A stretch of DNA of 64,000 nt, taken from NCBI RefSeq assembly GCF_024223415.1, contig NZ_CP100500.1, one strand, 5' to 3'. Below the pieces are notes generated by a model. The model had not been told where the DNA came from. It saw only the letters and a program-made list of their open reading frames with translations, and made no database searches. Numbering within the stretch: the stretch's first letter is position 1; each line of letters begins with the position of its first letter. This document shows, piece after piece, positions 30,197 to 40,876 of this stretch. Both the position numbers and the translations under genes were made by a program. The DNA comes from Escherichia coli (lineage in GTDB: Bacteria > Pseudomonadota > Gammaproteobacteria > Enterobacterales > Enterobacteriaceae).

Positions 30197-31849
<1,653 letters not shown>

Positions 31850-31869
31850 GTAAAAAAGTTAGAACGGCA

Positions 31870-31890
31870 ACGCGTACCCTGGGTACGCGT
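31870..31890 (+). other. Palindrome in the pyrG-eno spacer
   Basis: ACGCGTACCC-t-GGGTACGCGT, 10-bp arms followed by TGTTTGT. Confidence 0.4.
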
Positions 31891-31921
31891 TGTTTGTCTG
31901 GAGTTTCAGTTTAACTAGTGA

Positions 31922-33235
<1,314 letters not shown>

Positions 33236-33260
33236 GTCTGACTTTATCTGATTTAAAAAT

Positions 33261-33285
33261 GCCAGCCTTCGGGCTGGCGTTTTTT
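33261..33285. terminator. Bidirectional intrinsic terminator after eno
   Basis: GCCAGCC-ttcg-GGCTGGC followed by TTTTTT, preceded by AAAAA on the other side. Confidence 0.8.
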
Positions 33286-33294
33286 ATGGTTGAG

Positions 33295-34200
33295 TTACCA
33301 GCGACCGGACGCGCCGCCACCTCCAGAAGAACCGCCACCGCCGCTAAACCCGCCGCCTGAGCCTCCGCCACTTGAGCCGCCACCGGAAGAGGATGAAGAA
33401 GAACCTTTTCTTGAAGCTCTTTCTTTACTGAGTTTTTTGTATTTGGCGCGTAGCTTTTTATTGACGATAAGCCAAAAAATAACCAGTGGTACGATCGCAA
33501 AAGGCGTTAACATACCGCAGGCAACGATTAAATTGGTCCATGGTCCTGGCTCGGCAACATAGAGGAATACCATCCCGTAAATGGCGCCAGTGAGAGTGAT
33601 CCAGGGTAAATTCGACGGATCGGTAAAAACAATAAAATATGAAAGTACCGCCAGCAATATAATTACAGCAAGCGATAATGGAATAGGGGGATTGATACTG
33701 TAATAATCCCCCCTGTCTTCCGGTAATTCACCATTCAACAGAAGCGCGCCGATATTTTCGCTTGCCAGTGTTAATCCACCCATCAGGTCATCACTTTTGA
33801 AGGCAGGGATCAATATATCCCTGATAATCTTCGCCGCTTGCAGGTCGGTAACCACCCCTTCCAGCCCGTAGCCAACCTCAATACGAACAGCATGATCCTC
33901 CCAGGCAACCAGAAGTAAAATACCATCGTTTCTCTGCTTATCTCCCAGTTTCCAGCTATCAAAAACCCTTGTAGCATATTGTTCAATGGAATCGTCTCCG
34001 GTAGACGGCACTACTAATACAGCGACCTGCGCCCGTGTTTTATGTGTAATATCCTGCAGTTGCTGTGTCAGTGATTGTTGTTCAGAAGTGCTTAACGTAC
34101 CAGTAATATCGGTCACCTGTTGGCGCAGTTCCGGCACAGCAATTTGCTGGGCAAGCCCAGGAAGACACCACAAAGTGAATAGAATAAAGATTAAGCGCAT
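33295..34200 (-). CDS. TPM-domain membrane protein (YgcG-like), paralogue 1
   Basis: ORF track begins at a TTG (34212); the ATG at 34200 gives MRLIFILFTLWCLPGLAQQ... (signal peptide), a TPM domain (TGDDSIEQYATRVFDSWKLGDK...), TM helices and a Gly/Ser-rich C-terminus ending SGRW. Confidence 0.8.
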   Translation of the reverse strand: MRLIFILFTLWCLPGLAQQIAVPELRQQVTDITGTLSTSEQQSLTQQLQDITHKTRAQVAVLVVPSTGDDSIEQYATRVFDSWKLGDKQRNDGILLLVAWEDHAVRIEVGYGLEGVVTDLQAAKIIRDILIPAFKSDDLMGGLTLASENIGALLLNGELPEDRGDYYSINPPIPLSLAVIILLAVLSYFIVFTDPSNLPWITLTGAIYGMVFLYVAEPGPWTNLIVACGMLTPFAIVPLVIFWLIVNKKLRAKYKKLSKERASRKGSSSSSSGGGSSGGGSGGGFSGGGGSSGGGGASGRW

Positions 34201-34205
34201 TACGA

Positions 34206-35354
34206 TCACCAACGGCCGGATGAACCGCCGCCTCCTGAAGAACCGCCACCACCGCGGAAAGAATTTCTCGACGAAGAGCGAGAGTGAGCATTACGATTCC
34301 CCGTTTTCCTGTTGCTTTTTTCTCCTGATCCCAGCTTAAGATTGCCAGTAAATTTGGCCACAATGATCAGCAGAACGATGCCAGCAATGGTTATTGGACC
34401 GATAAAATGATCAATTAACCCAATAATTGTTGAGATGAATGCAATATCTTTATTACTGGCGAACACTAGGCACCATCCCACAATAATTATCAGCATCACG
34501 ACAAACAATGAATTTCGTCCTGATTCACGAACCTGCGGAGTCTTCTTTTGTTTTTTCACTTTAGCGTTTTTATTTTTTGGGGTCAGCATCATAGGAAATA
34601 CGCGGCACATATTAAAAACTACCGCGAGACGCTGCTTGCAGGTTGTTGCTAACAATAAACTAAAACAAACGACCGATACCCGCCGAATGATGACATCGTC
34701 CTGAAAGGAGAAAAACCAGACCATAGGGGTAATCATCGATATCATCCATATGCCACGCCGTGGGCGGCTGGCAAATCGCCAGAGGACAACGATGGCAACG
34801 ATCATCAGCAGTGTCCAGGCAAGACATGGCAGCGAACGTTGCGGATTAGCAAACAGATGATTGGCTAAAGCATCCAAAGGGCTAATGTTCGCTTTGATAT
34901 GGGTAAACTGTGCGATGCTTTCAATTCCGCCCGTTAATCCAGCAAAGAGATTGTTTTTTTCGAATTCTGGCTGCATATGGTAACGAACAATTTGCGCAGC
35001 TTGTTCCGGCGGCAACATCTGTTCCAGTCCATGTCCAATCTTCATTGACGCCAGCCCTTCCGGCCATACGACGAGAATTAAGATACCTTCGCCATATCGC
35101 TTCTCTCCAACGGGTTTCCAGTGATATACCCCGTATCTCTGCGAGGCTGCAAGTTTAATGTTTTTGCCCCCTGTGGTCGGCGTAACCAACACGGCCACCT
35201 GGAAGTGGTTTTGCTGCTCGAGAGTCTGTAATTGTTGAGTTAAAGCAGTTTGTTCTTCTGTCGTTAATGTCCCGGTTAAGTCAGTTACTGAAGGCCATTG
35301 TTCAGCGAATACCTGAAAACCGCATAGCATCAGAAGTAAGAGAAAAATACGCAT
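34206..35354 (-). CDS. TPM-domain membrane protein, paralogue 2 (longer, multi-TM)
   Basis: 382-aa ORF; signal peptide MRIFLLLLMLCGFQVFA; AAGGA SD; C-terminus GGGGSSGGGGSSGRW. Confidence 0.8.
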   Translation of the reverse strand: MRIFLLLLMLCGFQVFAEQWPSVTDLTGTLTTEEQTALTQQLQTLEQQNHFQVAVLVTPTTGGKNIKLAASQRYGVYHWKPVGEKRYGEGILILVVWPEGLASMKIGHGLEQMLPPEQAAQIVRYHMQPEFEKNNLFAGLTGGIESIAQFTHIKANISPLDALANHLFANPQRSLPCLAWTLLMIVAIVVLWRFASRPRRGIWMISMITPMVWFFSFQDDVIIRRVSVVCFSLLLATTCKQRLAVVFNMCRVFPMMLTPKNKNAKVKKQKKTPQVRESGRNSLFVVMLIIIVGWCLVFASNKDIAFISTIIGLIDHFIGPITIAGIVLLIIVAKFTGNLKLGSGEKSNRKTGNRNAHSRSSSRNSFRGGGGSSGGGGSSGRW

Positions 35355-35368
35355 ATCAATTCCTTTTG

Positions 35369-36262
35369 TTACCAGCGCCCGGAAGCGCCACCGCCACCAG
35401 ATGAACCGCCACCACCGCTGAAATTGTCATTGTTGAATGAAGAGGATGACGATGATGAATAGTGGGAGGAAGAATTGCTTCTTGTATGGCGTGATGGCTG
35501 GTTGACATCACGCATCAAATCCCGAACTTTTTTGCCGAAGGGGGTAAAAGCGATGGCGACAGCCAGGAACGGTGTGGCGAAGCAGAGTAATGTTGCGAGT
35601 ACTCCCCAGCTTCCGCTGAAGCCTGCTATAGGTAAAACAAAGGCCAGTACAATAGCTGCGAAGCAAATTACTCCCAGCGTTTTGATATATCCTCTGGCAG
35701 AAATAAACGTCAGTACTATCGCCCAGACTAACAATGCCCACCAACCGCTAAAGGGCAAAGGGTGATCGGTCGGTGTTATCGTTGCTAAATTATTCCCCGT
35801 AAGACGACTTTCAATATCGCTGATCCCCTTTTGTAAACCGCCAGCTAGGTCGCCTTTTTTAAATGCAGGAATAATACTGTTGCGAATAATTTTCCTGGAC
35901 TGTGCATCCGTAATAATACCTTCCAGCCCGTAACCGATTTCAATACGCACGGTATGATCCTGCCAGGCGACTAACAGTAGAACGCCATCATCACGGTCTT
36001 TATCACCCGGTTTCCAGCTATCGAATACCCGCGTTGCGTACTGCTCGATGGTTTCATCGCCTGTTGTTTCAACCACTAACACGACCAGTTGTGCGTGGCT
36101 TTTTTGCGTCAGGGCTTTAATCTGGTTGGTCAGGGTGTTTACTTCGCTGTTTGTTAATGTGCCCGTTAAGTCATTCACATACTTGGGTGATTCAGGTACT
36201 GGAATTTGTGTGGCAAACACAGATGAACAGAAGAAAGCCATAAGGAAGATAAAATTTCGCAT
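35369..36262 (-). CDS. TPM-domain membrane protein, paralogue 3
   Basis: ORF track to 36292; the ATG at 36262 (MRNFIFLMAFFCSSVFATQ...) has a GGGGAAG SD and a signal-peptide-like N-terminus; TPM core nearly identical to paralogue 1; C-terminus GGGGSSGGGGASGRW. Confidence 0.8.
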   Translation of the reverse strand: MRNFIFLMAFFCSSVFATQIPVPESPKYVNDLTGTLTNSEVNTLTNQIKALTQKSHAQLVVLVVETTGDETIEQYATRVFDSWKPGDKDRDDGVLLLVAWQDHTVRIEIGYGLEGIITDAQSRKIIRNSIIPAFKKGDLAGGLQKGISDIESRLTGNNLATITPTDHPLPFSGWWALLVWAIVLTFISARGYIKTLGVICFAAIVLAFVLPIAGFSGSWGVLATLLCFATPFLAVAIAFTPFGKKVRDLMRDVNQPSRHTRSNSSSHYSSSSSSSFNNDNFSGGGGSSGGGGASGRW

Positions 36263-36275
36263 AGAACTTCCCCGC

Positions 36276-36878
36276 TTAATGAGCATTAGCATTCTGGCTA
36301 AAATCTATTGTTGGGGCTTTACTTACTGCGGCGACATCATCCGGCAAATAATTTTTCTTTGGTGTGTAATCCATGACCTTTGCGGTTAACACAGCGGGGA
36401 ATTTGCGGATAGTGACATTATATTGTTCAATGGCTTTAATATATCTTCCTCGCGCAACGGCAATCCGATTTTCACTTCCTTCAAGCTGTACCATTAAATT
36501 TTGATAGAGTTCCTGAGATTTTAACTCAGGGTAACGCTCACTAATTATCGTTAACTGACCGAGAGTGCGAGTCACCTGCGCTTGAGCCTGTTGCCAGGCT
36601 TGTAATTTTTGTTCATCTCCCGGAGTTTGCTGAAGATCGCTACTGGCGCGATTAGCCTGGCTACGAGCCAATGTTACGGCTTCCAGTACATCTCGTTCAT
36701 GGCTGGAATAACCTTTAATGCTGGCGACAAGATTAGGAATAAGATCGGCGCGACGTTGATATTGATTCAATACCTCAGACCAGGAGGCGTTAACCTGCTC
36801 ATCATAGGTTTGAATATCGTTATATCCACAGCCTGATAAATTGAAAATAAATATAATTACGATGAATATTCTGAGCAT
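36276..36878 (-). CDS. lemA: LemA-family lipoprotein
   Basis: 200-aa ORF with lipobox (FNLSGC) and LemA-family helical region; first gene of the four-gene minus-strand operon. Confidence 0.8.
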   Translation of the reverse strand: MLRIFIVIIFIFNLSGCGYNDIQTYDEQVNASWSEVLNQYQRRADLIPNLVASIKGYSSHERDVLEAVTLARSQANRASSDLQQTPGDEQKLQAWQQAQAQVTRTLGQLTIISERYPELKSQELYQNLMVQLEGSENRIAVARGRYIKAIEQYNVTIRKFPAVLTAKVMDYTPKKNYLPDDVAAVSKAPTIDFSQNANAH

Positions 36879-37050
36879 GTTTAAATCCCTTTTAATTAAT
36901 TCCTTAAAACATAATACTCTGCTTCATTTTATTCTTTATGATCTAATCCACTTTTTGCCATAAACCTGCCTGTAACAGAATGTTAATAAGACATGATTGT
37001 TGTGGCAGGATCTGCAATAATTAACAATTATCCACTTCACAGAGAATGCT

Positions 37051-37722
37051 ATGCAGTACCCGATTAACGAGATGTTCCAGACCCTGCAAGGTGAGGGTTA
37101 CTTTACCGGCGTCCCCGCCATTTTTATTCGTTTACAGGGATGCCCGGTTGGCTGTGCCTGGTGCGACACCAAACACACCTGGGAAAAGCTTGAGGATCGG
37201 GAAGTCTCCCTTTTCAGCATTCTGGCGAAGACCAAAGAGAGTGATAAGTGGGGGGCGGCGAGCAGTGAAGATTTGCTGGCTGTCATTGGTCGCCAGGGAT
37301 ACACCGCGCGGCATGTGGTGATTACGGGTGGTGAGCCTTGCATTCATGATTTGCTACCACTGACAGATCTGCTCGAAAAGAACGGTTTTAGCTGCCAGAT
37401 CGAAACCAGTGGTACTCATGAGGTACGCTGCACACCGAATACCTGGGTTACCGTATCACCAAAGCTGAACATGCGCGGCGGCTATGAAGTGTTGTCACAG
37501 GCACTGGAGCGAGCCAACGAAATCAAGCATCCAGTGGGACGCGTACGTGATATTGAAGCACTGGATGAACTTTTGGCGACGCTGACCGATGATAAACCGC
37601 GAGTCATTGCACTGCAGCCGATTAGCCAAAAGGATGATGCCACACGTTTGTGCATTGAAACCTGCATTGCGCGTAATTGGCGTTTGTCGATGCAAACCCA
37701 TAAATATTTAAATATTGCCTGA
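37051..37722 (+). CDS. queE: 7-carboxy-7-deazaguanine synthase (radical SAM)
   Basis: 223-aa ORF MQYPINEMFQTLQGEGYFTGVPAIFIRLQGCPVGCAWCDTKHTW (CxxxCxxC-type cluster motif). Confidence 0.93.
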   Translation: MQYPINEMFQTLQGEGYFTGVPAIFIRLQGCPVGCAWCDTKHTWEKLEDREVSLFSILAKTKESDKWGAASSEDLLAVIGRQGYTARHVVITGGEPCIHDLLPLTDLLEKNGFSCQIETSGTHEVRCTPNTWVTVSPKLNMRGGYEVLSQALERANEIKHPVGRVRDIEALDELLATLTDDKPRVIALQPISQKDDATRLCIETCIARNWRLSMQTHKYLNIA

Positions 37723-38060
37723 TTAAACATTTATAAGCGTTATAAATGGGTGGAAACTGTAAAGACTTCTACTCATTTATATTCTTTGTCGTCTCTGAAA
37801 AACCTCCATTTTGCCCATCCTGAACTAATCATTATCATTCTCTACAAATTCTGTGGCGTTAATTTTTCGCTGGAGTGAAAACTATTGCGGTAAAGTTTGG
37901 TAGATTTTAGTTTGTATAGAGTTATTTTAAATATTTACCTTTTTAATCAATGGGTTAAGTGCTCTTTAACATGATGGATGTGTTGTTTGTGTGATACTGT
38001 AAAGTTGGTAGATTGTGACTGGCTTAAAAAATCATTAATTAATAATAGGTTATGTTTAGA
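37723..38060 (+). promoter_or_regulatory. CRISPR leader (AT-rich, promoter-containing)
   Basis: About 340 bp of AT-rich sequence ending ...TATGTTTAGA immediately before repeat 1; repeat orientation places the leader on this side. Confidence 0.65.
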
Positions 38061-38760
38061 GAGTTCCCCGCGCTAGCGGGGATAAACCGGCTGGATACCG
38101 ATCAATTCAATATCGTTTTACGAGTTCCCCGCGCTAGCGGGGATAAACCGGAATACCGATTCATAACGGCGGAAATGTGGATGAGTTCCCCGCGCTAGCG
38201 GGGATAAACCGGTTAATGATGTCAGTGGCGGTTTTCGTATCGCGAGTTCCCCGCGCTAGCGGGGATAAACCGAGTGAGGCAATCAAATGACCCGCCCGCA
38301 ATTAGAGTTCCCCGCGCCAGCGGGGATAAACCGTAAATCCCTCGCGCATCGAGTCAAATGTCGGAGAGTTCCCCGCGCCAGCGGGGATAAACCGGTCGCT
38401 GGAACGGGGCGAATAAAGAGGGGCTCGAGTTCCCCGCGCCAGCGGGGATAAACCGACAGCTCTTTCCCGTCGTTATCCAGTTGGTAAGAGTTCCCCGCGC
38501 CAGCGGGGATAAACCATATGATTCACGAATTACAGGAAACCAGCCGCCGAGTTCCCCGCGTCAGCGGGGGTAAACCGCTATCGGGGTGATTCTGCCAATG
38601 CTCAGAGTGGTGTTCCCCGCGCCAGCGGGGATAAACCGAGCGTTTGCTCCGGGTGGAATAACCCTGGCGGGTGTTCCCCGCTCCAGCGGGGATAAACCGT
38701 TTGCTGGAACCCAAAACTCAGCGCACAGGTTGTGTTCCCCGCGCCAGCGGGGATAAACCA
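38061..38760 (+). CRISPR. Type I-E CRISPR array, 12 repeats and 11 spacers (CRISPR2.3-equivalent locus between queE and ygcE)
   Basis: 29-nt repeat GAGTTCCCCGCGCCAGCGGGGATAAACCG with 32-nt spacers at an exact 61-bp period; repeats start at 38061, 38122, 38183, 38244, 38305, 38366, 38427, 38488, 38549, 38610, 38671, 38732; repeats 1 to 4 carry GCGCTAGC, repeats 10 to 12 begin GTGTT, repeats 8 and 12 end in A. Confidence 0.97.
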
Positions 38761-39229
38761 CCATATAACCCGTTATCTCTTTCTCAAGTTTTTATATTAG
38801 CTGTACTTGTAATAAGCAACATATCCACGTAACACCTCATGTTCAAAATAGTTCCCCATGCCAGATAAGTTCACAATTATCGATACAAAAAATTAAATTT
38901 AATCAAAGTGTTATTTGTATAATTCTTAAGCCGTTAAGAAATTTTAATCTATTATTTTTTTAATATTAATTAATGCCTGTTAATTTTTTCTTTAGTATAA
39001 CAGTGTATTTTTTAAGCTTGTTATTCATTGATTAAGTAATAAATCTGGAAATTTGTCTTTGTTTTGAGGCTAATGAGTGGTTTTACATAACCGCCTCTAT
39101 ACGCTGTTGATGAATAGTTCTTATGAATAAAGATATCCAGTTCATACTTTAAGTGAAAATTGATAAAGTGCGATTCGTATTGTCTTTTATTCTAAAGACA
39201 TCGAGTGTAGTTAATATTCCTTGTAAAAA
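38761..39229. other. AT-rich spacer block between the array and the remnant (possible second leader or H-NS-bound region)
   Basis: About 470 bp, strongly AT-rich, no ORF of 60 aa or more. Confidence 0.4.
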
Positions 39230-39351
39230 CAGGGATAAACCGAACTAGTTAAAGTTTTTATTATGTTCCCTGCATCAGCGGGGATAAACCGGACTTGTTA
39301 TCATTTTTTAAGTTGTCGAACTTATGTTCCCCGCGCCAGCGGGGATAACCA
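39230..39351 (+). CRISPR. Degenerate CRISPR remnant (CRISPR2.2-like): one truncated and two degenerate repeats
   Basis: CAGGGATAAACCG (partial), ATGTTCCCTGCATCAGCGGGGATAAACCG (5 mismatches) and ATGTTCCCCGCGCCAGCGGGGATAACCA (1-nt deletion); spacers of 20 and 32 nt. Confidence 0.75.
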
Positions 39352-39397
39352 TTCAGGTATGTTCAGGCCGGGCAGTTTCCCGCCCGGTCTTCCTCAC

Positions 39398-40876
39398 TTA
39401 CGCATTCGACCAGCTCTGGATCGAATCCGCATTCCCCAATTCCCCATGCATCACTTCATACGATTTTTTCAGGATCACATCAGTATGTTTGGTTAGGTCT
39501 TTGAAAATGCCTTTATTCATCGCGTCGTAGCGTTTGGCATTGCTCTCAATCGGTATAAAGATATCTTTCACGCGAACCATTTTATCGACAGCCGTTGCGT
39601 AATCCGGGTATAGCCCCAGACCTACCGCTGTATTAATCGCTGCCCCCAGGCTTGCACAACCGTTAATGGCGTTACGGCGTGCCGGAAGGTTGAACACGTC
39701 GGCAAAAATCTGCATAAACAGATCGCTGTTCGAACCGCCGCCAGTAATGATCACATGCTTTGCAAAGTGATTCATTTCATTACACATATTGTCGTAATTG
39801 TTCTTCAGCGTCAGCGCCACGCTTTCCAGTATAGAACGATATATCCATGCGTAATCCATGCTGGAATCAAAGCCGATCATAATCCCACGTTTGTAGGGTT
39901 CCCACGGGTTGGTCAGCCAGTCCAGCACCGTCATCAGACCATTACAGCCAGGCGGCACACAAGAAGCTTTTTTGTTGAGCAAATCTTCCGGTGAAAGATC
40001 CTGTGCTTTGGCATCCTGAATTAACGACTCGCCTAGCATGTCGCGCAGCCAGCTCACCGTCCACATGCCTTTACGGATACCGTAACCTTCATACAGCAAT
40101 GTTTGCGGAATAGAAGACATAATCGGCCAGTACGCCACCGGATCTTTCGGCAGTGCTTTGCCGTTCATCATCAATGCGATGTAAGTGCCAAGAGAAATTA
40201 CCGCCGTTTCATCATCCAGTAATCCGGCCCCCAGAGCTTCTACCGGTTTATCACTGGTGGTACAAACAACCGGCAGTCCTGCCGGGAAATGTGTCGCCAG
40301 TGCGGCTTGTGGTGTGATATGTCCGAGGACGGTGCCAGGCATTTGCACATCAAACAGCATATGACGGGGGATATTAAACTTATCCATTACCGCAGCATCT
40401 TCACTCCATGCCCAGCTCTTATAATCCACCGGCCACTGACCAAAATAGTTGGAGATATTGTCTTTAAACTCGCCGGTTAAGCGATGCGTCAGATAACCCG
40501 AAAAAGAGGTGACATAGGCCACGTCAGGATTAGTGTGTTCGTAGGGACGCGTTACGCGTGCATCCTGCCAGCTAATCAATGGCGCAGCTGGCGTGCCATC
40601 GGCTTTCAATAACGCACGGCAGCAACGGATGGATCCCAGACCAATACCGACAATATCTTCTTTATTCCCGGCAAACTGACTCATCAAATCGTGACCGGCA
40701 AAACATAATGATGCCCATAAATCGTCGTCAGGATGTTCTGCGGTATCGGCATCTGGCGTGTGCATCGGCTGCAATAAGCCTTTACCTTCGCAAACCACAT
40801 TACCTTCCAGATCGTACATCACCACTTTTGTGCTCTGACTTCCGCCATCAATCCCTATGATGTATTTTTTCGACAT
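39398..40876 (-). CDS. ygcE: FGGY-family carbohydrate kinase YgcE
   Basis: 492-aa ORF MSKKYIIGIDGGSQSTKVVMYDLEGNVV... (FGGY N- and C-terminal domains). Confidence 0.88.
   Translation of the reverse strand: MSKKYIIGIDGGSQSTKVVMYDLEGNVVCEGKGLLQPMHTPDADTAEHPDDDLWASLCFAGHDLMSQFAGNKEDIVGIGLGSIRCCRALLKADGTPAAPLISWQDARVTRPYEHTNPDVAYVTSFSGYLTHRLTGEFKDNISNYFGQWPVDYKSWAWSEDAAVMDKFNIPRHMLFDVQMPGTVLGHITPQAALATHFPAGLPVVCTTSDKPVEALGAGLLDDETAVISLGTYIALMMNGKALPKDPVAYWPIMSSIPQTLLYEGYGIRKGMWTVSWLRDMLGESLIQDAKAQDLSPEDLLNKKASCVPPGCNGLMTVLDWLTNPWEPYKRGIMIGFDSSMDYAWIYRSILESVALTLKNNYDNMCNEMNHFAKHVIITGGGSNSDLFMQIFADVFNLPARRNAINGCASLGAAINTAVGLGLYPDYATAVDKMVRVKDIFIPIESNAKRYDAMNKGIFKDLTKHTDVILKKSYEVMHGELGNADSIQSWSNA

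Follow-up and report, generated by a model that had tools for sequence, protein, structure and literature searches.

A putatively ancient LemA-TPM operon with a shared Gly-rich C-terminal tail between eno and queE of Escherichia coli

What is the origin of three neighbouring genes in Escherichia coli whose products all end in nearly the same glycine- and serine-rich peptide, and what might these products do? The genes lie in a 64,000-nucleotide (nt) stretch of contig NZ_CP100500.1 (RefSeq assembly GCF_024223415.1), which we call the window. Four minus-strand open reading frames (ORFs) run there in the same direction between eno and queE (Table 1). An initial annotation, made from the letters alone, had described them as a LemA lipoprotein gene followed by three paralogues with a TPM domain, and both the ORF listing and the Pfam matches agree with it. 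We label the three TPM-domain genes TPM1, TPM2 and TPM3 in their order 3' of lemA. The best explanation overall, to which we assign a probability of roughly 0.55, is an ancient LemA-TPM operon acting as an envelope module. The part that concerns identity and evolution we regard as very probable, whereas the part that concerns the mechanism, which is drawn largely by analogy, is tentative.

The C-termini of TPM1, TPM2 and TPM3 all read F(S/R)GGGGSSGGGG(A/S)SGRW, and the ending GGGGSSGGGG(A/S)SGRW that had been claimed for all three proteins is plainly visible in the translations. Across the six frames of the window the motif occurs at the three TPM gene ends only, and because of this confinement it cannot be attributed to chance. 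At the DNA level a family of 55-nt direct repeats is located at the same ends, with identities of 78% and 85% to the reference copy. The shared 3' sequence had thus been placed correctly in the initial annotation, but the wording 'near-identical' is too strong for copies that are 78-85% identical and for final 54-nt segments that match at 43-46 of the 54 positions between paralogues. When we compared the 18 tail codons, 8-9 were identical, 7-8 showed synonymous differences and 1-3 showed non-synonymous differences, and the tail codons are close to saturation for synonymous differences. Almost half of the tail codons for the same residue use different triplets, and therefore it is the peptide that is conserved, and the DNA has not been homogenised. 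The repeat search detected no further long DNA repeats between the TPM genes.

The same ending was observed in Klebsiella, Brenneria, Pseudomonas (...GGGGSSGGGGASGRW), Burkholderia (...GGGGSSGGGGASDSW) and Bradyrhizobium, and distant homologues of 434-482 amino acids (aa) end in ...GGGGSFGGGGASGSW. Outside these groups, the SEQRES record of BA41 from Bizionia argentinensis (Bacteroidetes) ends in ...GGGFGGGGASGGW. About 64 complete long TPM ORFs of the 84 loci described below end in the tail, one from Leptospira included. In an alignment of 68 homologues 8 of the 16 invariant columns fall within the last 15 residues, with G, S and W among them, and the mean column entropy is 0.55 bits for the tail compared to 1.44 for the TPM domain and 2.5 for the transmembrane (TM) region; the aligned sequences were chosen with a pattern demanding a terminal ...W, and still essentially every intact long TPM has the tail. 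Judged by these alignments the tail is the most conserved element of the long TPM family, and this across phyla. Low complexity without true homology, which had been noted as an alternative, can be set aside, as the tail is a true family-wide protein motif found across genera. Our literature search for the tail peptide found no paper that prints it.

Lapses of the tail were seen in TPM2 only. The TPM2 of E. albertii (locus L009, 3844-4980) ends in ...GGGGASGR with the terminal Trp lost, and the TPM2 of strain 536 (locus L003, 2574-3722) ends in ...SSDRW. These lapses fit the higher ratio of non-synonymous to synonymous substitution rates (dN/dS) of this gene given below.

The age of the paralogues was assessed from their protein identities and from the same site in related genera. 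TPM1 and TPM3 share 43-45% protein identity, and TPM2 shares 33-39% with either of them. E. albertii carries the same four genes as one-to-one orthologues, with identities of 84% for TPM1, 78% for TPM2 and 90% for TPM3. A Klebsiella genome (L005) shows at the same site the order queE, lemA, a TPM gene, a 262-aa gene and eno. The Klebsiella TPM protein groups with TPM1 of the window at 51% identity, and the 262-aa protein with TPM2. The TPM domain of the latter has been lost, but its signal peptide, its TM helices and a tail without deviation remain. As orthologues of TPM1 and TPM2 are found in Klebsiella, that duplication is older than the split between Escherichia and Klebsiella, and the TPM3 orthologue in E. 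albertii makes the TPM3 duplication at least as old as the split between E. coli and E. albertii. We obtained dN/dS values of 0.03-0.11 for lemA, 0.13-0.20 for TPM1, 0.26-0.36 for TPM2 and 0.13 for TPM3, and purifying selection acts on all four genes. The paralogues are therefore ancient and their identical tails are kept by selection on the peptide, neither recent duplication nor gene conversion being responsible. Tandem duplication with possible ongoing recombination, as initially proposed, is contradicted by the protein identity of 34-45%, by the separate orthologues in E. albertii and Klebsiella and by the synonymous near-saturation.

The comparison with other bacteria was based on 84 loci, of which 80 came from a scan with a LemA alignment using one genome per species and four from exact-protein look-ups. 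The 80-locus scan returned alpha-, beta- and gamma-Proteobacteria and one Leptospira. A TPM gene adjoins lemA in 79 of the 84 loci, mostly directly downstream and co-directional. The usual order is lemA, long TPM, short TPM, and both the long and the short gene are present in 47 loci. The long TPM proteins are BA41-like, with 280-350 aa, a signal peptide, the TPM domain, a hydrophobic span of ∼70 aa (∼3 TM helices) and the tail ...GGGG(S/F)xGGGGASGxW. The short TPM proteins have ∼165 aa, lack a signal peptide and a TM helix, end in NELPDxPVVL and match BA42 at 1e-16. We found no short-TPM ORF between eno and queE in the window, and the loci of Klebsiella, Brenneria and Pseudomonas that we examined do not have one either. 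As in the canonical operon, lemA of the window lies directly upstream of a long tailed TPM gene in the same direction. The layout with three long tailed TPMs and no short TPM is shared among the 84 loci by E. albertii only, and the locus in the window is a lineage-specific expanded variant of a widespread LemA-TPM module. Cys-[GSA]-Tyr-Asn was found in all 84 LemA homologues and a canonical lipobox in 74 of them. No paper describing LemA and TPM as an operon was found in our literature search.

The gene order is reversed in some loci. In Burkholderia (L008, 4882-7199) a TPM gene followed by lemA is located inside a type VI secretion system (T6SS) cluster, between tssG and the tssJ/SciN lipoprotein gene. 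The order TPM then lemA was also observed in Paraburkholderia (L011) and in Candidatus Burkholderia verschuerenii (L018).

The family assignments in the window are clear. LemA matches Pfam PF04011 at 5.6e-48 over model positions 1-149 of 149 and the sequence of PDB entry 2ETD at 7.7e-32. Its N-terminal sequence, MLRIFIVIIFIFNLSGC, has the form of a lipoprotein signal; the lipobox reads L-S-G-C17, and the invariant G-Y-N comes next. The Pfam family TPM_phosphatase (PF04536) matches TPM1 at 8.7e-41 (positions 1-123 of 125), TPM2 at 3.7e-21 and TPM3 at 3.9e-38, and among PDB sequences TPM1 matches 7TBR at 3e-21 and BA41 (5ANP) at 1e-20. The gaps between the genes are at most 14 nt; the lemA stop codon at 36276-36278 is followed by the TPM1 start at 36262. 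The longest ORFs would be 35369-36292 for TPM1, starting with ATG, and 33295-34212 for TPM3, starting with TTG at 34212. However, with the ATG at 36292 TPM1 would overlap lemA, so that its true start probably lies elsewhere and is placed by us at ATG 36262, and the start of TPM3 is likely ATG 34200, because these starts are conserved in 536, B7A and E. albertii and are accompanied by Shine-Dalgarno-like sequences. The terminator-like hairpin past TPM3 is the probable end of the operon. Taken from its layout, the locus appears to be a chromosomal operon lemA-TPM1-TPM2-TPM3-terminator.

Table 1. Features between eno and queE and in their surroundings (positions in the window)
Feature	Position	Strand	Basis or remark
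eno	31937-33235	+	ORF listing
Intrinsic-terminator-like hairpin GCCAGCC-CGAA-GGCTGGC with T run, 17 nt past the TPM3 stop	33261-33278	-	consensus scan
Proline-rich ORF	33290-33562	+	antisense of Gly-rich coding sequence
55-nt direct repeat, copy at TPM3 end	33294-33348		
C-terminal tail of TPM3, coding GFSGGGGSSGGGGASGRW and stop	33295-33351	-	
TPM3: BA41-type TPM membrane protein, 301 aa	33295-34200	-	ORF, Pfam
55-nt direct repeat, copy at TPM2 end	34205-34259		
C-terminal tail of TPM2, coding SFRGGGGSSGGGGSSGRW and stop	34206-34262	-	
TPM2: most divergent paralogue, 382 aa, ∼5 TM helices, lysine-rich cytoplasmic loop (predicted)	34206-35354	-	ORF, Pfam, hydropathy
55-nt direct repeat, copy at TPM1 end	35368-35422		
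C-terminal tail of TPM1, coding NFSGGGGSSGGGGASGRW and stop	35369-35425	-	
TPM1: BA41-type TPM membrane protein, 297 aa	35369-36262	-	ORF, Pfam, AlphaFold2, orthologue starts
lemA: LemA-family lipoprotein, 200 aa, first operon gene	36276-36878	-	ORF, Pfam, lipobox
PhoP-box-like site	36878-36894	+	2 mismatches
Divergent lemA-queE intergenic region, 172 bp	36879-37050		presumed operon promoter
PhoP-box-like site	36961-36977	-	2 mismatches
queE	37051-37722	+	ORF listing
Type I-E-like CRISPR array	38059-38759		12 repeats
Degenerate CRISPR repeats, 2 or 3	39212-39351		∼450 nt beyond the array

Several smaller observations concern the tail-coding region and its annotation. The last TM helix and the Gly-rich tail give weak matches to Pfam PF25184 ('YxzE-like putative bacteriocin') at 1e-4 for TPM1, covering residues 267-302 (numbered from ATG 36292), and at 2.4e-4 for TPM3, covering residues 234-290; the matches are possibly compositional only. 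The Prokaryotic Genome Annotation Pipeline labels TPM1 'incomplete; missing C-terminus' in 536 (L003, 3974-4645) and in B7A (L002, 2324-2995). We rejected a pseudogene, since both ORFs are intact up to ...GGGGSSGGGGASGRW, and the low complexity of the tail has probably misled the annotation. An Rfam scan of 31000-40000 returned no RNA family.

We then considered where the domains and the tail would be located. TPM1 was modelled with AlphaFold2 (AF2) from the 68-sequence alignment with a mean predicted local distance difference test score (pLDDT) of 77.9, and it is the only paralogue for which a model was built. In this model the TPM domain has a pLDDT above 90 and is composed of 4 strands and 4 helices. 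It is followed by helices at residues 174-189, 194-212 and 218-238; residues 241-250 form an amphipathic helix, and 256-277 are disordered. A Foldseek search with the model returned 5ANP (BA41; TMt 0.89 with 34% identity), 7TBR (0.88), 2KW7 (0.78) and 3PVH (0.76), and the proteins matched include PG0361, TLP18.3, Psb32, BA42 and LMTP1. From hydropathy, and for TPM1 also from AF2, each TPM protein starts with a segment that resembles a signal peptide, and 3-5 hydrophobic helices come after its domain. Of the earlier phrase 'secreted or membrane' proteins we would retain the second half: as each of the three is predicted to carry a signal peptide, to expose its TPM domain to the periplasm and to contain these hydrophobic helices, they are expected to be membrane-anchored and not secreted. 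The TPM domains are predicted to be extracytoplasmic and membrane-tethered, and LemA to be lipid-anchored outside the cytoplasm. The tails of the E. coli TPM proteins contain 7-11 K/R against 1-3 D/E, and in 58 of the 68 homologues the stretch of 15 residues that follows the last hydrophobic segment carries a net positive charge. By the positive-inside rule the tail is most probably cytoplasmic. Conserved acidic residues are found in the N-terminal D-x4-L-x3-E and in GYGLE of all three paralogues, and D31 is invariant in the 68 homologues.

We also considered the short TPM as a docking partner of the tail. In an AF2 chimera in which the C-terminal 40 residues of the cognate long TPM were joined to the Afipia short TPM (TPM-B), the tail was disordered with a pLDDT of ∼40, and this candidate was dropped. 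The chimera was built as a single chain from a 35-locus paired alignment and read out by pLDDT and DSSP only, so it provides a weak negative.

Within E. coli the locus is variable. Across 5,426 complete genomes lemA is present in 1,454 (26.8%) and TPM2 in 1,104 (20.3%), and the full four-gene form, counted as at least 80% of 33100-37100, in 1,101 (20.3%). At least 80% of the body of the K-12-type ygcG was found in 3,933 genomes (72.5%), and a partial or full body in 4,290 (79.1%). The 120-aa filler gene of the B7A type occurs in 340 genomes (6.3%). All E. coli copies of the locus are chromosomal and single. O157:H7, LF82 and 536 are among the carriers of all four genes, and strain SCU-316 matches the window at 100% identity. 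The B7A haplotype has lemA and TPM1, and an unrelated hydrophobic protein of 120 aa (L002, 1692-2054) replaces TPM2 and TPM3; this protein had no match in NCBIfam, PADLOC or PHROGs. The copy-number variability suspected in the initial annotation is thus a presence/absence polymorphism, and the four-gene arrangement is not that of most strains, being complete in 1,101 of the 5,426 genomes. Its suggestion that K-12 has a single gene here, ygcG, was also right, and the 46-codon yqcG has to be added.

The synonymous divergence at this locus is unusually deep. Among E. coli haplotypes dS is 0.12-0.88 in the operon compared to 0.01-0.02 in eno, which is 5 to 40 times higher. For TPM1 the window allele shows a dS of 0.88 to B7A and of 0.41 to E. 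albertii. The allelic lineages therefore seem to be older than the species, or introgressed. The homology between K-12 and the window reaches from the eno side to 33366, inside the tail-coding 3' end of TPM3, and the third gene of 536 is a mosaic, with the first ∼60 residues window-like and the remainder at 98% DNA identity to K-12 ygcG. Recombination appears to matter between strains, as in the 536 mosaic and at the K-12 boundary at 33366. The K-12 YgcG protein is 37-41% identical to any paralogue of the window. Its best 120 database relatives are all from E. coli, either of the K-12 type or mosaics of the 536 type, and no donor species for K-12 ygcG was identified among them. In our reading ygcG occupies the TPM3 position as a deeply divergent allele, and the K-12 state is a reduced derivative.

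The other end of the K-12 form retains a trace of lemA. The homology to the window resumes at 36844 within lemA and runs on through the intergenic region at ∼95% identity. The gene yqcG (K-12 locus L001, 2582-2722, corresponding approximately to 36810-36911 of the window) starts at an upstream ATG, which in the window precedes a stop codon. It passes the lemA ATG with a 1-nt deletion in K-12 and then continues in the LemA frame, with 69 of 98 nt matching. YqcG ...TFTKIIFIFSVLVFNDNEY aligns with LemA ...IFIVIIFIFNLSGCGYNDI with the lipobox Cys lost, and residues 15-33 of YqcG are the counterpart of the LemA signal peptide. The alignment indicates that yqcG is a frameshifted fossil of the 5' end of lemA with the lemA promoter region in common. 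We also considered that yqcG might have arisen by deletion of an internal, in-frame part of lemA with both ends retained, and rejected this, since the 3' alignment is scattered, and we claim 5' homology alone. The RefSeq name of YqcG is 'cell envelope stress response protein'.

Two PhoP-box-like sites were found in the lemA-queE region, and the window contains 19 such sites over both strands. Between lemA and queE no matches were obtained for the consensus patterns of sigma-E, CpxR and RcsB. For K-12 it has been shown that phosphorylated PhoP binds two adjoining 300-bp segments, the first of them directly upstream of queE, and that deletion of yqcG leads to higher queE expression (PMC4974570). 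It is plausible that the lemA operon responds to PhoQ/PhoP. In Flavobacterium columnare a mutant of the signal peptide peptidase sppA showed raised expression of lemA (log2 1.22) and of a TPM gene (log2 2.21), together with an extracytoplasmic function (ECF) sigma factor (PMC13236525).

How similar is this locus to systems that have been described? The closest protein is BA41, which TPM1 resembles in sequence, in fold and in the C-terminal motif, and a BA41-like gene is the usual neighbour directly downstream of lemA in the set of loci. We take the BA41 and BA42 genes of Bizionia to sit in an operon of the type lemA, long TPM, short TPM. Compared to the operon type of BA41 and BA42 (4OA3, 2MPB), the BA41-like gene is present as three paralogues in Escherichia and a BA42-like short TPM is missing, and TPM2 differs from BA41 in its ∼5 TM helices and an inserted lysine-rich loop. 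The K-12 pair YgcG (b2778) and YqcG occupies the same eno-queE site, and YgcG is built in the same way with its tail unchanged, but K-12 lacks lemA, TPM1 and TPM2. The photosystem II repair and assembly proteins Psb32, TLP18.3 and LMTP1 belong to the same PF04536 (Foldseek matches 3PVH, 3PTJ, 8C7I and 9H70), and they also have an extracytoplasmic (lumenal or periplasmic), membrane-tethered TPM domain (10.1101/2024.10.28.620569). The window proteins are nevertheless not Psb32: NCBIfam NF047379 gives 31-40 bits for TPM1, TPM3 and K-12 YgcG against a cut-off of 160, and E. coli has no photosystem. To our knowledge neither a LemA partner nor a Gly-rich tail has been reported for Psb32, TLP18.3 or LMTP1. 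Among other TPM-fold proteins, MOLO-1, which belongs to the C. elegans levamisole receptor, is an auxiliary part of a membrane complex and is a model for the mechanism proposed below. A ∼143-aa subunit of the mycobacterial CIII2CIV2 supercomplex (8OVC_V, 6ADQ_J, 6HWH_O, 8HCR_J) has the TPM fold as well, with a Foldseek probability of 1.0, a TMt of ∼0.65 and 13-17% identity, and is a further case of a TPM domain in an auxiliary part of a membrane complex; these chains are named accessory factors of the supercomplex.

On the LemA side, the family members Listeria LemA, Thermotoga TM0961 (2ETD) and MamQ have the same PF04011 and a helical bundle predicted to be extracytoplasmic. LemA of the window is anchored by a lipobox signal, whereas the other members named have an N-terminal TM helix. 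It is not MamQ (NCBIfam NF040966 at 1.5e-25 and 89.9 bits against a cut-off of 250), and it is unrelated to the Pseudomonas LemA/GacS sensor kinase. The function of LemA has been described as unknown; MamQ is needed for magnetosome membrane formation, and a LemA-like domain has been proposed as a membrane-associated scaffold.

Based on these analogies we propose that the module would maintain the inner membrane and the periplasm. LemA would be a lipid-anchored periplasmic helical bundle that serves as a membrane-proximal scaffold. Each TPM protein would be anchored by 3-5 TM helices, with its metal-binding alpha/beta TPM domain exposed to the periplasm and its tail most probably to the cytoplasm. 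Outside the cytoplasm the TPM domains would assist membrane complexes in an accessory, assembly or repair role, by analogy with Psb32 and TLP18.3 (photosystem II), MOLO-1 (a ligand-gated channel) and the subunit of the mycobacterial supercomplex. The three paralogues might have differing client specificities, give the module a broader specificity or form a hetero-oligomer. Expression would start from the promoter region common with queE, which is PhoP-bound in K-12, and would respond to low Mg2+, antimicrobial peptides and envelope stress.

A number of points weigh against this reading. As ∼73% of complete E. coli genomes have no lemA, the module is dispensable. TPM2 evolves faster and its TPM domain is lost in Klebsiella, so not all paralogues would need the domain. 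The PhoP-like sites contain two mismatches each, and PhoP binding was shown on the K-12 version and discussed for queE only. According to the titles of the respective papers BA41 reportedly has ATPase/ADPase activity and BA42 phosphatase activity. Published activities of this kind, for BA41 and for BA42/TLP18.3, suggest a hydrolase and not a scaffold. In the AF2 model residues 288-296 of TPM1 (GGGGASGRW; 35372-35398) form a beta-strand with a pLDDT of ∼94. Because the model has no other strands than those of the TPM sheet, this strand would be docked on that sheet, as read from the DSSP string. Docking in cis would be topologically impossible if the tail is cytoplasmic, and the predicted strand conflicts with that location. 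Finally, a literature search on LemA, TPM, ygcG and yqcG found no functional study of this locus.

The surroundings of the locus were inspected as well. A repeat search revealed a type I-E-like array of clustered regularly interspaced short palindromic repeats (CRISPR) of ∼29-30 nt (GTGTTCCCCGCGCCAGCGGGGATAAACC) with a 61-nt period, and a few degenerate repeats beyond it. The array was missed by Tandem Repeats Finder and is annotated at the same place in K-12 and B7A. PADLOC-DB gave no match for the four window proteins; the sole match, at noise level, was DrmB (E 0.0075) for K-12 YgcG. Among the four proteins only LemA had a PHROGs match, to phrog_1383 at 5e-22, a family labelled 'virion structural protein', although this label is probably unreliable. 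With tblastn LemA homologues were found in 37 of 50,697 phage records; most of these come from phages of Enterococcus and Listeria, and a 240-kb record of an Acinetobacter phage is among them.

Four other explanations were weighed against the ancient envelope module. The first reading of the locus was that of recent tandem duplicates whose 3' ends are homogenised by recombination or gene conversion and whose copy number changes by unequal crossing-over at the repeat. It draws on three co-directional paralogues that share the 55-nt direct repeat at their 3' ends, on a gene number that varies among strains and on the end of the K-12 homology from eno at 33366, which puts a haplotype divergence boundary near the tail. 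Yet protein identity between the paralogues is only 34-45%, they have separate orthologues in E. albertii and Klebsiella, the repeat copies are 78-85% identical with 7-8 of 18 codons synonymously different, and there are no other long DNA repeats among the genes. Nor is the K-12 form a simple product of unequal crossing-over, given that ygcG is only 37-41% identical to each of the paralogues and that a 5' fossil of lemA is kept. This explanation is largely refuted and we consider it extremely improbable. An accessory island for defence or competition near the CRISPR array, directed against phages or contact-dependent toxins, would account for the presence/absence polymorphism and the very deep alleles (dS 0.12-0.88 vs 0.01-0.02 in eno). 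The array starts ∼340 bp beyond queE, the Burkholderia TPM-lemA pair lies within a T6SS cluster, and the PHROG match and the 37 phage records with LemA homologues would also be in keeping with such an island. On the other hand PADLOC gives nothing above noise for the four proteins, and there is no integrase, transposase or other mobility gene at a locus that occupies one and the same chromosomal site, as a single copy, in E. coli, E. albertii and Klebsiella. The lemA-TPM core is near-universal in the proteobacterial loci sampled, like a housekeeping module, the proteins are periplasmic or in the inner membrane, and lemA is under strong purifying selection. We regard an island of this type as very unlikely, though not quite as much so as recent duplication.

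The two remaining explanations concern the function of the TPM proteins and the position of the tail. The main rival to the scaffold or accessory role is enzymatic: the periplasmic TPM domains would be divalent-cation-dependent hydrolases of nucleotides or phosphoesters, acting on a periplasmic or membrane-surface substrate with LemA as cofactor or regulator. TPM1 is closest to BA41 (1e-20 in sequence; TMt 0.89 with 34% identity in fold), for which, as for BA42, the paper titles name the activities given above. The D-x4-L-x3-E and GYGLE motifs kept in all three paralogues and the invariant D31 would suit such a role, and metal binding has been reported for BA42, TLP18.3 and LMTP1 (10.1101/2024.10.28.620569). 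The same survey, however, finds no consensus on TPM function and no single function for the fold (10.1101/2024.10.28.620569). Several TPM proteins are non-catalytic accessory subunits, the Klebsiella orthologue of TPM2 is retained with its tail intact but without the domain, and the gene neighbourhood suggests no substrate. A hydrolase is therefore, in our judgement, unlikely. The other possibility is that the tail returns to the periplasm, where its last residues would add a beta-strand to the TPM sheet of the same protein or of a partner and would complete or occlude the domain. The predicted strand at 288-296, with all other strands of the model in the TPM sheet, argues for it, as do the C-terminus of the short TPM-B (PVVL), likewise predicted as a short strand on its own domain, and the failure of AF2 to dock the tail on TPM-B. 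Against it stand the three hydrophobic helices that follow the periplasmic domain, the net positive charge of the membrane-proximal tail in 58 of 68 homologues and the excess of K/R (7-11) over D/E (1-3) in the E. coli tails. Furthermore AF2 ignores the membrane, and the strand partner was taken from the DSSP string and not from coordinates. Such a periplasmic tail seems rather improbable to us, about as much as the hydrolase.

What would the ancient LemA-TPM operon mean for the biology of the family and of E. coli? One joint reading, which is speculative and which we hold to be unlikely as it stands, takes the invariant GGGGASGxW as the key element of a widespread trans-membrane system of LemA lipoprotein, long TPM and usually a short cytoplasmic TPM. 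The tail might be a signal for docking, regulation or degradation by which events on the periplasmic side, at TPM and LemA, are linked to the cytoplasm, or it might be a return strand that gates the TPM domain. In Escherichia the system would have been remodelled around three specialised long TPMs, with its control linked to PhoQ/PhoP. K-12 would have lost the system, keeping the divergent orphan YgcG and YqcG as a stress-induced fossil of the LemA signal peptide, and the deep alleles would be the outcome of balancing or diversifying selection that has long acted on an envelope function. The genes of the locus already carry family-level annotation in RefSeq, and current understanding is not overturned by these results. 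The points that stand out are the invariant tail that spans phyla, the lemA origin of yqcG and alleles that are unusually deep compared to eno. Both LemA and TPM belong to the more widespread bacterial families that lack an accepted function, and the natural states of E. coli, with the full module in O157:H7, 536 and LF82, a two-gene core in B7A and a remnant in K-12, would make the species a convenient genetic entry point to them.

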